A DNA stretch of 4,732 nucleotides from a virus (IMGVR_UViG_2529293240_000011:1-4732), one strand, 5' to 3'. Positions 1-4,732 are shown, counted from the stretch's first letter. A program made the numbers and translations. Notes: a model not told the origin generated them from the letters alone.

Positions 1-742
1 TGCCGTAGGGGCCAGCAACGGAATATTCAACTGGCAGCGCATTCCTTACCCAGGCCAGGAAATCACTCTTAGTGTCAAAACGGATAACATCTTCAGGCAG
101 AAAAGCACACCCAAAGCCGAATGCGCCGGGTATCGCCAGACGGCCTTTTGTCCGGTCGTAAATGTCGCTCTGTGCTTCCATCGTGGCCGCACTTTTCAGC
201 CCCAGATTATCCCGGGACTTCTGTTGTGCCTTTTCGCCTGCTGCTGCGATTTCAGACAGATGGTTAGCCGTTTTCAGGGTGCCGGTCAGCGCAGCATCAA
301 TGTCATTTTTGGCCTGTTCTGCTGCGCGGGCATAACCTGCGGCTGCCGCCACATCCTGCGCCGTCTGCTGTGCGTTTCCGGCTGCGGCCCCGGCGCTCTG
401 CTGCGCCTGCGCCACCATTTCCTCAAAGCGTTTGACGACATCCGGTTTCAGGTCGCCCTCATCAGGAGCAATCAGAAAGTCATTCAGCGTGCCGGGCTTT
501 GAGTCCTCATATACAGCAATGTCGCCAACGTTGTACTCGTTGCGCCAGTCCTGTTTCAGATACACACCATATTTTCCAGTCCGCGCATGGAAACAGTATT
601 CACCATCGTTTCCTGTCATCACATCAGCAACAGTGTTCATCACCACTTCCGGGGTGTTTACCCGGGATTTCAGAATAATATGGTATCCGGACATGGGGAT
701 ACCTGCGCCATCAGTCAGCGCACCTGATATCACTACAGACAT
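1..742 (-). CDS. side tail fibre protein, lambda Stf-like N-terminal domain (partial; 3' end lies beyond window start)
   Basis: ATG at 742..740 is the first start after an in-frame TAA at 763..761; I translated the frame by hand and it stays open for 247 codons to position 1. Not in the ORF track because it has no stop in the window. N-terminus MSVVISGALTDGAGIPMSGYHIILKSRVNTPEVV...GDIAVYEDSKPGTLNDFL matches from memory the conserved N-terminal domain of lambda Stf-type side tail fibres (MAVKISGVLKDG...TITVYEDSQPGTLNDFL), followed by an Ala/Gln-rich stretch typical of fibre shafts. Only a weak GAG Shine-Dalgarno in the 23-bp spacer after the upstream gene. Confidence 0.8.
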   Translation of the reverse strand, partial: MSVVISGALTDGAGIPMSGYHIILKSRVNTPEVVMNTVADVMTGNDGEYCFHARTGKYGVYLKQDWRNEYNVGDIAVYEDSKPGTLNDFLIAPDEGDLKPDVVKRFEEMVAQAQQSAGAAAGNAQQTAQDVAAAAGYARAAEQAKNDIDAALTGTLKTANHLSEIAAAGEKAQQKSRDNLGLKSAATMEAQSDIYDRTKGRLAIPGAFGFGCAFLPEDVIRFDTKSDFLAWVRNALPVEYSVAGPYG

Positions 743-765
743 TGTTTTTCTCGCGATAAATTAAA

Positions 766-1311
766 TCAGGAAGAACCTTCCGGAGAGGCGGGCCATTCAA
801 TGGCGTTGTATGAGGATTTATCAGTGATGGTGCTGAAATCCATCGCCTGCAGCGATTTCGCGTAAATACGACAGGCTTTCAGCTTTTCTTTATCTTCGTC
901 GCTGATTAACCCCAGCAGCAGGTCTTCTTCCCATTCCCCTGTCCGGGCACTGACCTGAGCCAGAAGGGCATCACGCTCATCTTCCGCTTTGAGTCTGTAG
1001 TCAAAGACAAATTCATCATTGCGGTAAAACCAGTAACCCGGCGCGGTAATCCGTCGGTTAGCGGTAATATCAGGAACTTCAATAACACTGGCATTGCGTG
1101 GCTCGATGCCTGTCACATCCTTACCGACCCACACCACGCGACCATCTCCGGTGTAAGCTATTTTTATTGTGTCGCTGGCGAAATTCTTCAGCTCTTCATA
1201 CCAGTTTTTTCCGTCTTCTGAAAAAAGCCAGGAGACCGAATATCGTTTTGTCATCTGATATTGTTCTGCTGTTTTCGGATTACCCGCAGTAATATTTTTT
1301 AAATGCAACAT
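766..1311 (-). CDS. tail fibre assembly protein (Tfa chaperone; P2 gpG-like N-terminus, lambda Tfa-like C-terminus)
   Basis: 181-aa ORF whose ATG (1311..1309) lies 2 nt after the fibre stop (TAA, 1316..1314). N-terminus MLHLKNITAGNPKTAEQYQMTKRYSVSWLFSEDGKNWYEE...VIEVPDITANRR resembles P2 gpG as I recall it; C-terminal ...AIEWPASPEGSS resembles the lambda Tfa C-terminus (...DIEWPAVPVME). Position directly downstream of a fibre gene fits a Tfa. Confidence 0.88.
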   Translation of the reverse strand: MLHLKNITAGNPKTAEQYQMTKRYSVSWLFSEDGKNWYEELKNFASDTIKIAYTGDGRVVWVGKDVTGIEPRNASVIEVPDITANRRITAPGYWFYRNDEFVFDYRLKAEDERDALLAQVSARTGEWEEDLLLGLISDEDKEKLKACRIYAKSLQAMDFSTITDKSSYNAIEWPASPEGSS

Positions 1312-1313
1312 TG

Positions 1314-2699
1314 TTAAATACTCGCTACGTTATACCAGGTGCCATTAATCAGTTTTTGCAGTGGTCGGTAATACACACCGTCAACGTTATCCGCTGAGTT
1401 ACGGCCGGTATCCGATATCGCCATCCCTGACAGCCCGTGTCCCGAAGGTGCGCAAAATCTCCACGAAACGGTGTTACTGCCGGGGCTGTAATACATTTCA
1501 TGGCCATACCGTACATCCTGTACCCCCTCTGTTCGATATTTATAGCGGGCATCGAAGTTTCCGTAATTTAACGGAATTACCTGTCCGTTAACAGTGAACA
1601 CTATGCTGTTATCCGGGTTTCTCTGGCTGAAAAAATGCCAGCCTGAATCATCACCAAGCTCTGCAACAACAGGCCTGGATGGATTACCCCACAAATAAAA
1701 CGCTGCATTTTTCGTGGAGTTGTTGGCGCTGGATAACGTGAATTTTCTGGCAGTTCCGGCCTGAATATTCTTAAAAGCAATAGCCACTCCATTCTGAAAG
1801 CGGAATACACGCTGACTATTAGCATAAACATCCAGAATACCGTCTCCATTCTGTTTAAATCCGGTGTCATTATCACCAAGAACAATTGAATTCCCCCCCA
1901 GGGCGTTCTGAACGCCGATACCCAGCGCACCATTGACCTGCGAACCACCGCCAACAGACACTTTATGCGACATGGATATTTCACCCGTCCGCAAATTAAT
2001 GGTGAACGGGCGCAGGGGACCAATATCGCCATTTTCCCCCTGACCTTCACTGGTGGGAATAAGGTGCAGGCACTCTTCCGAACGACGAAAAATCAGGCCA
2101 AAAGCTTCGTTGAAAATCCTCAGCGCATTAACACCACGGATTTTCAGCTCTCCGGTTATTTTATCGCCTTCCCGATGAACATAGCGTTGATCTGACTGCT
2201 CTTTACTGTAAACCTGAAGATTATCCCGTGCCGTCCCTTTATTCTGAAGGTCTGACAGATTGTTCTTCTGCCGCAGGAATATCCTTTTCGGATCCTCAAG
2301 AAGATTTACCCAGCCCGCACTGTCGGAGCCTTCAGGATCGGTCAGGTTATCGTCTGTGGTATTCAGCCAGACCGCTGTTGTTGCGACTCCGGCGAGAATG
2401 GCTCCTTTTGCATATCCACCAATGGCCCCCGCAAAACCGGCATTATACGTGTACAAACCGCCAGCCTGGGCGAACCGTATTGCTGCGGTAATATCGTACA
2501 TCAGACCGTTAAAATCCTTGCCGTGTGGCGGTATACCTCCCGCTGAGACCGCTGTCATGGTCACCGGAGGAAAACCTGAATCATACGCAGCATTACCGCT
2601 CTCTCTGGTCTGCTGTGTCGCCTTGTCCGGGATACGGTTTTTATCTCCGGTACTCGCAAAGGGGACCGCCAGCTGGCGGGGTTTATCACTGGCCTTCAT
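1314..2699 (-). CDS. tail fibre protein with P2 gpH / Mu S-type C-terminal receptor-binding region
   Basis: 461-aa ORF. C-terminal half contains [51 protein letters not shown]...[20 protein letters not shown]...[11 protein letters not shown], which matches the conserved C-terminal region shared by P2 gpH-family fibres (recall, not a search). The N-terminal ~260 aa are not recognisable to me. Start ATG at 2699..2697 is preceded by a strong Shine-Dalgarno (minus strand AAAGGAGTCCCGTAATG). Confidence 0.88.
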
Positions 2700-3290
2700 T
2701 ACGGGACTCCTTTAAAACTACTGAAACATAAACACCCGGCGGGGATGGCAGTGCACCCGACGACTGGATAATCGCCAGTTCTGCCAACGAGAGCGCGGAC
2801 TCAAAGACGTAACTCATCCTCAGCCCACCATTATTCAGAACATAAGCCCGCCGTTTTTTTCCGAACATAAATCTCAGCATCCGGTTAATATCCGGAACGG
2901 AACAGTCAGTAATGTTCGACATGGCTTTCATCAGTATCAGCCGCCGGTATACAGCATCAGACAGGTCAACAGTCCGGGTATCCGATTTTCCGTTGTAAAA
3001 CGGTGCCTGATTAAACGGACAGGGATCATCCATTACCGGGGTGTCCATCCTGGACTCGCTGAAGCCAGGTAATTAAAATCGTCCTTTACCGTCAGCCGGC
3101 GACTGACACCCACAATCTTTCCCCAGACATCAAGACCATACTTTTCTGCGGTATCGATGTTCCAGATAAGACCATAAAAATCACTGATAAAACTGTCGGG
3201 GGAAAGCGCTGCGTTAAAGCTGTTAATGAGGGCATTGAGTCGGGGGCTGGCAGCATACTGCGCAAGCACAGTGGCAGCCACATTCTGCAC
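2686..3290 (-). pseudogene. YmfQ/DUF2313-like phage tail (baseplate) protein gene, split by an apparent 1-nt frameshift
   Basis: Two adjacent minus-strand ORFs in different frames: 3033..3290 (GTG start, 85 aa) and 2686..3048 (120 aa; that frame is open upstream to 3072). The first carries ...FYGLIWNIDTAEKYGLDVWGKIVGVSRRL..., the N-terminal signature I associate with the e14 YmfQ / Mu gp48 (DUF2313) family; the second carries the C-terminal pattern (...YRRLI...NITD...YVFESAL...ELAIIQSSGALPSPPGV). Together they give the expected ~200 aa. The frame change maps to about 3066..3075 (minus strand GATTTTAATTACCTGGC), where one extra T would restore ...DFNLPGFSES.... Could be a real pseudogene or a sequencing indel. 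Confidence 0.6.
2707..2712 (-). promoter_or_regulatory. Shine-Dalgarno (AAGGAG) for the tail fibre gene
   Basis: Minus-strand AAGGAG (plus-strand ctcctt at 2707..2712) sits 7 nt upstream of the ATG at 2699. It lies inside the 3' end of the preceding gene, which overlaps the fibre start by 14 nt. Confidence 0.6.
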
Positions 3291-3291
3291 G

Positions 3292-3534
3292 TTATGCCTC
3301 CTGGAGTTTCACACTGATATCCGACACATCCAGAACCGGAATCTCATCTATCCCGAAAGTGACAGCCGTTGTCCATGACGAACCGTCACGGCTCACAGTA
3401 AGGCCCAGAATATCAATATGTTCCGGATCGGTTTTGTAAATGCCGGCATAGTAGCGCCCGGCAGAGACAACAGAGGCAACCCTTGCCCGCAGACCACCAT
3501 CTGTACCATTAAATGCGTCCAGCACGGATTGCTG
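3292..3534 (-). pseudogene. 3' remnant of a tail/baseplate gene (baseplate J-like by synteny) truncated by the IS insertion
   Basis: The reading frame ending at TAA (3294..3292) stays open upstream across the proposed IS boundary at 3535 and into IS sequence, stopping only at 3603..3601, so the native 5' part of the gene is missing. The stop is 1 nt from the GTG start of the YmfQ-like gene, suggesting translational coupling. In P2/Mu/e14-type modules the gene before the I/YmfQ-like gene is baseplate J; I cannot recognise the 81-aa remnant itself, so identity rests on position. Confidence 0.45.
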
Positions 3535-3560
3535 GTAAGCGCCCCGAGAAGTACGTAGCG
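3535..3560. repeat. putative terminal inverted repeat (IRR) of the IS66-family element
   Basis: GTAAGCGCCCCGAGAAGTACGTAGCG at the inferred IS terminus. Its extent is a guess because the partner IR at the other IS end is outside the window. Confidence 0.4.
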
Positions 3561-3566
3561 TAAGGA

Positions 3567-4732
3567 TTATTTTACAGACGAGAAGTTCCAGGGCAGCAGT
3601 TCATGCACTTGGTTCGACGGCCAGTCATTGAGCTTCTCGATCACTTCGCGCAACCAGTCCTCCGGCTCCACTTCGTTCTGTTTGCAGGTGACCAGCAGAC
3701 TGTAGATGATCGCCGCACTTTCTCCTCCCTTGTCTGAGCCGAAAAAGAGATAATTTTTTCTTCCAACCGCCACCGATCGTAACGCGTTTTCACCGATGTT
3801 GTTGTCTATTTCCACCCAGCCGTCACGACAGAACTCGTTCAGCGCATTCCAGTGATTCAGGATATAGTCGAACGCCTTCGCCATCTCCGCATGTTTCGAC
3901 AGCGTTTTCCTCTGCAACTGTATCCAGTCGTACAACGACTGCATCAACTGGACGCTTCTGGCTTTTCTGACTGCAAGCCGTTCCTCTGCCGGACTGCCAC
4001 GTATCTCCGCTTCTATGTCGTATAACTCTGCTATCCGTCTGAGCGCTTCCTGAGTCATTTCTGTCGGACGGCGCACATCCTCGTCATGGATTTTTCGGCG
4101 GGCGTGGGCCAGGCACCCGGCTTCCTTCACCCGACCCGTTTCGTACAGTACGTTATAACCTGCATAGGCATCAGCCTGCAGTACGCCCTGATACTTTGCC
4201 AGGTGGAGCTGCGGATGTTCTCCTTTGCGATCTGCCGAATACGCGAACCAGACGGCTGCCGGCAGGGATGAACCCGCATTACGATCATCCCTGACGTATA
4301 CCCACAGACGACCCGTTTTCGTCTTTCCGTTCCCCGGGGCCAGTACTTTCACCGGAGTGTCATCTGCGTGCACCTTTCCTGCCTCCAGAACATAGTCATT
4401 CAGCGCTATATACAGAGGACGGAGTTTGTCTGCCATTTCTGATACCCAGCGCACCATGGTATTACGGCTCAGCTCCACGCCCTGTCGCGCGTATATTTCT
4501 GACTGGCGATATAAAGGGATATGTTCCATATATTTGCTGACCAGGATCCGTGCAAGTAACCCTGCACTGGCATAACCGCGTTCGATCGGTTTAGGGGGAA
4601 GTGGTGCCTGAACGATGACATCACACCGGCTACAGGCCAGTTTGGGACGTATGGTTTCGATAACTTTAAAGGCGGTATTAATGATATCCAGTTGCTCTGA
4701 GATTGTTTCCCCATTTCTTTCAGAACACCTCC
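3567..4732 (-). CDS. IS66-family DDE transposase (TnpC-type), partial; N-terminus beyond window end
   Basis: Stop TAA at 3569..3567. I checked by hand that the frame stays open from the ORF-track methionine (4529) up to the window edge (...[80 protein letters not shown]...), so the track's 4529 start is an artefact and about 388 codons are in the window. Motifs LACSRCD (zinc-finger region), [40 protein letters not shown] and ELLPWN are characteristic of IS66 TnpC proteins (recall). Confidence 0.85.

Follow-up and report, generated by a model that had tools for sequence, protein, structure and literature searches.

Intact phages have six baseplate wedges, each built from one wedge protein and two Baseplate_J proteins. 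Two such wedges have been described structurally in phages whose wedge proteins are relatives of the gene considered here. The XM1 wedge has the composition (gp16)2-gp17 and is homologous to the (gp6)2-gp7 wedge of T4 and the (PA0618)2-PA0619 wedge of pyocin R2 (PMC10457771). Within gp17, residues 1-48 form a helix-turn-helix that is contributed to the core bundle, and the tail spike is bound by a disordered loop made up of residues 80-106 (PMC10457771). The E217 wedge consists of two conformers of the Baseplate_J-like gp44 and one copy of gp45, whose 'fiber attachment loop' (residues 76-123) grips the N-terminal coiled coil of the fibre and relays the attachment signal to the baseplate (PMC10329688).

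The locus studied here lies in a 4,732-nucleotide stretch of viral DNA, which was analysed as a whole and is referred to below as the window. An ORF list together with Pfam and PHROG searches places all of its genes on the minus strand, where they are transcribed in the order 3' part of an IS66-family transposase, Baseplate_J remnant, split gene, tail fibre, fibre assembly and second tail fibre. The features are as follows.

3535..4732, minus strand: one end of ISSfl3 (IS66 family), leaving the window at 4732 (99.8% to annotated ISSfl3 copies; Pfam DDE_Tnp_IS66)
3292..3534, minus strand: 3' remnant of a Baseplate_J (T4 gp6-like) gene, 243 nt, codons 334-413 and stop (match to the finished-genome loci L002/L003)
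3290..2686, minus strand: probable wedge pseudogene, whole split gene (frame analysis, PF11041)
3033..3290, minus strand: 5' half of the probable wedge pseudogene (PF11041, frame analysis; exact product on record as DUF2612 domain-containing protein, Shigella flexneri)
3065..3066, minus strand: position of the lost G (pairwise alignment with E. coli VL40)
2686..3072, minus strand: 3' half of the probable wedge pseudogene (PF11041, frame analysis)
1314..2699, minus strand: tail fibre gene, 461 codons, uninterrupted (ORF list, PHROG tail-fibre profiles)
766..1311, minus strand: tail fibre assembly (chaperone) gene, 181 aa, uninterrupted (Pfam Caudo_TAP, E 7.9e-27; phrog_136, positions 2-177 of 178)
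1..742, minus strand: second tail fibre gene, first 247 codons, with a prophage tail fibre N-terminal domain, leaving the window (phrog_2636, E 2.5e-127)

The order sheath initiator, Baseplate_J, wedge gene, tail fibre is found in E. coli VL40, in the sister loci L002-L008 and in Pantoea phage PA-1; of Baseplate_J, the window has just the 3' end. VL40 has an annotation for the second tail fibre gene, which in L002 carries PF08400.

A wedge gene split at codon 76

Two minus-strand ORFs in different frames make up the split gene, one of 85 aa with a GTG start (3290..3033) and one of 120 aa (3048..2686). In Pfam, the first corresponds to positions 1-73 of the PF11041 profile (E 2.4e-25, 90 bits) and the second to positions 79-180 of 181 (E 3.2e-33, 115.7 bits), collinear matches to one family that lie far beyond chance. 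Aligned pairwise with E. coli VL40, in which the 606-nt gene is intact, the window shows 99.4% identity, three substitutions and exactly one gap, with CCTGGGCTTC on the coding strand of VL40 becoming CCTGGCTTC in the window. The gap reduces the GGG run of codon 76 (GGC, Gly) to GG, visible as CC at 3065-3066 of the plus strand.

The initial annotation had read this region as a single tail or baseplate gene split by a 1-nt register change, and had proposed alignment with an intact homologue as the means of placing the indel. The split is borne out, since both halves belong to the same family and the VL40 alignment contains a single gap, at the GGG run. The position given for the change, 3066..3075, was essentially right, but the indel does not lie inside the A/T-rich string quoted for it, GATTTTAATTACC (window 3080..3068); it lies in the adjacent G run, 2 nt downstream of the string in the coding sense.

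Restoration of the G in silico yields a 201-aa protein with a single PF11041 match, spanning profile positions 2-180 of 181 and scoring 220.4 bits (curated cut-off 23.5 bits). Seven complete E. coli genomes have 802 nt where the window has an 801-nt stretch, with an intact 606-nt gene and 98.4-99.5% identity, and E. coli annotation shows one 'DUF2612 domain-containing protein', flanked by a 'baseplate J/gp47 family protein' on one side and by a gene for a tail fibre or tail protein on the other. A single frame covers 80% or more of the wedge gene in 230 of 237 phage records, and homologues from phages and bacteria measure 195-201 aa with few exceptions. The collinear fragments, the 1-nt gap against an orthologue and the recurrence of the indel in independent assemblies (described below) together indicate a frameshift pseudogene that arose by a real mutation.

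Family assignment and solved relatives

The family is PF11041; the local Pfam copy names it DUF2612, and precomputed annotations Phage_Wedge1. The gene had initially been assigned to YmfQ/DUF2313, an assignment that fails on several counts: the restored protein has no DUF2313 hit in Pfam even at E<=10, BLASTP against E. coli K-12 YmfQ gives a non-collinear match of 71 residues at E 0.40, hhalign of the 30-sequence profile against YmfQ gives a probability of 0.3%, and the PHROGs differ (587 for the wedge gene; 203, 'baseplate wedge subunit', for YmfQ). With Pfam, BLASTP, hhalign and PHROG all against it, remote homology to YmfQ/DUF2313 was rejected. What had been recognised is the position of the gene rather than its family. 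Both e14 YmfQ and Mu gp48 resemble the wedge gene in lying directly after a Baseplate_J-type gene and before tail fibre and fibre assembly genes, and probably also in role, as small wedge subunits, judging from the pyocin and T4 comparison (PMC10457771), but they have no detectable sequence relationship to it.

Solved relatives were found with a HMMER profile of 30 homologues, and include the XM1 gp17 'baseplate wedge protein' (7KH1; E 4.7e-12, residues 8-186 against 12-195), gp89 of 9ZD7 (E 2.3e-6), Pa193 gp46 'baseplate wedge 2' (9B45; E 4.1e-5) and E217 gp45 'triplex' (8ENV/8EON; E 5.1e-5). These matches indicate that, in a contractile-tailed prophage, the wedge gene very probably encoded the small subunit of the heterotrimeric baseplate wedge, equivalent to T4 gp7, XM1 gp17 and E217 gp45. 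The Shigella protein and XM1 gp17 belong to the same sequence family and match over nearly their whole length (201 and 242 aa), both genes follow a Baseplate_J-type gene and precede a fibre or spike gene, and both proteins have a GFSE motif where the spike-binding loop begins. They differ in that identity between them is low, that gp17 has an extra C-terminal tail (201-242) which binds a second set of spikes, and that the Shigella gene is broken by the 1-nt deletion. For E217 gp45 and Pa193 gp46, the homology covers the N-terminal ~150 residues, including the region of the fiber attachment loop, and genes neighbouring the wedge gene in the sister loci belong to Pfam families named after E217 and Pam3; gp45, however, is 504 aa long, with a large C-terminal part that the Shigella protein lacks.

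The comparison also suggests where in the protein the break would fall. By counting along the weak HMMER alignment, Gly76 would lie opposite Gly80 of gp17, the first residue of its spike-binding loop; a second weak alignment would pair it with approximately residue 83 of E217 gp45, which belongs to the fiber attachment loop. The break would thus mark the start of the fibre-docking loop. An AlphaFold2 model, made from 30 homologues headed by the intact S. flexneri protein, predicted N-terminal helices but was too poor (mean pLDDT 48.7) to support a fold; it was worst at residues 42-112, which would be compatible with a loop that becomes ordered when the complex forms.

Predicted consequences for the products

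The 85-aa product comprises native codons 1-75, beginning with the GTG at 3290..3288, followed by ten out-of-frame residues (ASASPGWTPR) and a TAA stop at 3035..3033. Downstream, the native frame can be read only from 3072; its first ATG (3048..3046) is native Met82 and its stop is at 2688..2686, and this 3' half overlaps the start of the fibre gene by 14 nt. Residues 76-81 (GFSESR) are present in neither product, because the upstream ORF leaves the native frame after residue 75 and the first ATG of the downstream ORF is Met82. Two of these residues, Gly76 and Glu79, are invariant in the 30-homologue alignment.

In the proposed mechanism, one G would have been lost from the GGG at codon 76, most likely through replication slippage or a simple deletion. 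Translation would then end 10 codons after the loss, giving an 85-aa product that would retain the N-terminal helices only, and the remaining 60% of the gene, now in the -1 frame, would be expressible only from the internal ATG at Met82. The mutation is heritable and belongs to a set of independent lesions, among them IS insertions and further 1-nt deletions, that are eroding the prophage remnant and its paralogue. Loss of function of the wedge gene appears to be the best-supported reading, and the region is very probably a pseudogene of a PF11041 wedge subunit, which lost its G by an inherited deletion in the course of ordinary prophage decay.

Spread of the allele and alternative explanations

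The exact 85-aa frameshift product contains the out-of-frame tail and is therefore specific to the GG allele. The index of public assemblies has it in 291 blocks, and a cluster look-up found the same sequence on 209 contigs, with many NCBI accessions, under the name 'DUF2612 domain-containing protein [Shigella flexneri]'. All seven sister loci that were fetched (L002-L008) have GG, and come from two finished genomes, GCA_900457175.1 and GCA_002741395.1 (CP024470), and five assemblies of SRA runs. Because the exact product occurs across many assemblies, finished genomes included, the GG allele is real and inherited, and it is widespread in Shigella flexneri. GGG is present in L001 and L012-L019, and the exact restored allele also occurs in the public collection. 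Other S. flexneri strains (e.g. 4343-70), EIEC-like E. coli and both of the species-representative genomes that contain the site likewise have GGG, and the GG lesion is therefore polymorphic.

This distribution bears directly on the possibility, put forward in the initial annotation as an equal alternative, of a homopolymer sequencing error, by which the source genome would truly have GGG and the split would be a miscall in this assembly. The deletion site is indeed a short homopolymer, and the window contains a second 1-nt loss from a G run (G5 to G4 in tnpC of ISSfl3, at 4709-4712), for which the resulting 320-aa ORF comes mostly from assemblies that also split rpoC, marking them as error-prone. 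An error confined to this assembly is nonetheless highly improbable, given that GG and the identical product recur in finished genomes, many NCBI surveillance assemblies and independently assembled SRA runs, and that window 1-3534 shows only 3 substitutions and no gaps against the two finished genomes (L002/L003). Another possibility is that the gene is functional as a fission, both ORFs being translated, the second by coupling at Met82, to give a wedge subunit in two pieces that would still work because the break lies in a flexible surface loop. Such a fission would be in keeping with the break at the start of a loop that is disordered in XM1 gp17, with the arrangement of the ORFs, which overlap by 16 nt and have the ATG at 3048 placed 13 nt upstream of the stop of the upstream ORF, and with the GG allele of L004-L008, which is found in an otherwise mostly complete tail module. 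It is very unlikely all the same: the two pieces would both lack residues 76-81, with the invariant Gly76 and Glu79; the broken loop serves for fibre docking in XM1 and E217; AGGA, as read from the sequence, directly adjoins the ATG and therefore leaves no usable spacing; homologues are nearly all single ORFs; sister contigs have further frameshifts in other tail genes; and in the window the Baseplate_J partner is destroyed by ISSfl3, so that no wedge can form here.

A full-length protein could alternatively be made from the GG allele by programmed -1 ribosomal frameshifting or transcriptional slippage. A -1 slip after the CUG of codon 75 would re-read G-GC and give the exact wild-type sequence, but the 40-nt stretch in which rescue would have to occur (3072..3033) contains neither an X_XXY_YYZ heptamer nor a run of at least 5 bases, and the relatives are single-frame, so that there is no conserved recoding site. 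Rfam gave no element in the whole window, and no repeats, inverted repeats included, were found in 2600-3600. Programmed frameshifting was rejected after the frame and motif analysis of 3072..3033, and its probability is close to nil.

Truncation of Baseplate_J by ISSfl3

The initial annotation was correct in placing an IS insertion in the gene just upstream of the split gene. The match to L002/L003 extends only to window 3534, corresponding to position 1000 of the 1242-nt Baseplate_J CDS in those loci, and the terminal repeat of ISSfl3 (IS66 family), GTAAGCGCCCC, begins at 3535, so that Baseplate_J is truncated at the junction 3534/3535; the 3' part of tnpC in the window has its stop at 3567. 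Baseplate_J is intact (413 aa) in L002-L008, and the ISSfl3 insertion is therefore later or more restricted than the frameshift. The ISSfl3/Baseplate_J junction of the window has no match among genome representatives or viral contigs. A look-up of the 77-aa remnant ORF returned only the paralogous locus described below, with a different junction, and a look-up of the 320-aa ISSfl3 ORF returned many IS copies in two error-prone assemblies, none of them in the arrangement of the window.

The G5 run present in tnpC of an intact 533-aa copy is shortened to G4 in the window (plus-strand CCCC at 4709-4712), and the transposase gene is therefore itself frameshifted, leaving the 320-aa ORF. Because this ORF occurs mostly in the two assemblies that also split rpoC, the loss may not be a real mutation but an error of assembly.

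Fibre genes

The initial annotation contrasted a decaying baseplate with intact fibre genes. Baseplate decay is right, and in the window the fibre (461 aa) and assembly (181 aa) genes are uninterrupted, but the intactness of the fibres holds for this copy only. The 461-aa fibre matches PHROG tail-fibre profiles from residue 1 and to the last profile position, and has the identical length in L002/L003; in E. coli VL40, the fibre gene is IS-interrupted. The second fibre gene encodes 304 aa in L002/L003, against 421-429 aa in VL40 and L013 and 409-429 aa across VL40 and L013-L015, and is probably truncated in these closest finished S. flexneri genomes. The truncation would fall outside the window, where the gene starts at 742 (the copies compared are at 12549-13463 in L002/L003 and at 9843-11108 in L001).

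Similarity to VL40 is uneven along this part of the window. Positions 1593-2161, in the central and C-terminal parts of the fibre gene, have no high-identity match in VL40, and positions 7-1592 match at 95% only. In L004, substitutions are clustered at 868-1821. Set against the nearly identical baseplate genes, the region of the fibre and chaperone has the look of a mosaic or recombinant.

Sister loci and a paralogous copy

The sister loci differ in how much of the tail module they retain. In L002/L003, IS elements replace the upstream tail genes, and a sit-like ABC transporter operon comes after the fibre genes. L004-L008 have GG and one further substitution, at window 2808, and their tail module is much more complete, with terminator, sheath, tube, tape-measure/SLT, hub, spike and sheath initiator, although some of these contigs have additional split genes. 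As the module in L004-L008 is otherwise largely complete, other decay does not invariably go along with the wedge lesion.

S. flexneri also has a second copy, near pdxJ/acpS and ipaH (L012, L014-L017). The wedge gene of this paralogous copy keeps the GGG, and has a C5 run shortened to C4 at about codon 30 (window 3198-3202; ~10310-10320 in L012, L014-L017). Its Baseplate_J gene contains ISSfl3 at 9949/9950 (L012/L014-L017), 42 nt further upstream than the site in the window, and its fibre gene is IS-interrupted. One further locus, L013, has an intact 201-aa wedge gene at the paralogous position. The lesion in the paralogous wedge gene is an independent inactivation of the same gene.

Genes of other kinds adjoin these modules. 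A sit-like Mn/Fe ABC transporter operon flanks the tail-fibre module at one locus, and an ipaH effector gene (LRR_TTSS + NEL) at the others, the coordinates of this cargo being 14588-18037 in L002/L003, 11862-12802 in L001 and about 16100-17970 in L012-L017. These virulence-associated cargo genes persist where phage structural genes decay.

The recurrent, independent loss of two genes, the wedge gene and Baseplate_J, in each of the two paralogous remnants might be taken as a sign of selection against tail assembly that spares sit and ipaH, or of a fission tolerated at the fibre-docking loop; this is unlikely, and neutral decay in an IS-rich genome explains the two-copy loss well enough. If selection were at work, the loss might, for example, stop particle production that would be costly or lethal, while the sit and ipaH cargo would be kept.

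Implications

Prophage pseudogenes of this kind, and reductive decay driven by IS elements, are typical of Shigella genomes. The present locus conforms to Shigella prophage decay in having 1-base deletions in short homopolymers and IS insertions (ISSfl3, IS2/IS3-type and IS1) in prophage structural genes, and in that the decayed structural genes adjoin virulence or cargo genes, which at these loci are ipaH and genes of a sit-like ABC transporter; the only notable point of difference is that the same two genes have been lost independently in two paralogous copies. The finding is an ordinary pseudogene from routine prophage decay, and its products are in public databases under the correct family name.

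For annotation, it means that the two ORFs are correctly described as one DUF2612/Phage_Wedge1 pseudogene, rather than as two small genes or as a YmfQ homologue. The GG allele is a stable, lineage-informative marker in S. flexneri and, together with the differing lesions of the paralogue, provides a small and clean example of the erosion of Shigella prophages by homopolymer deletions and IS elements, with the adjacent cargo persisting.
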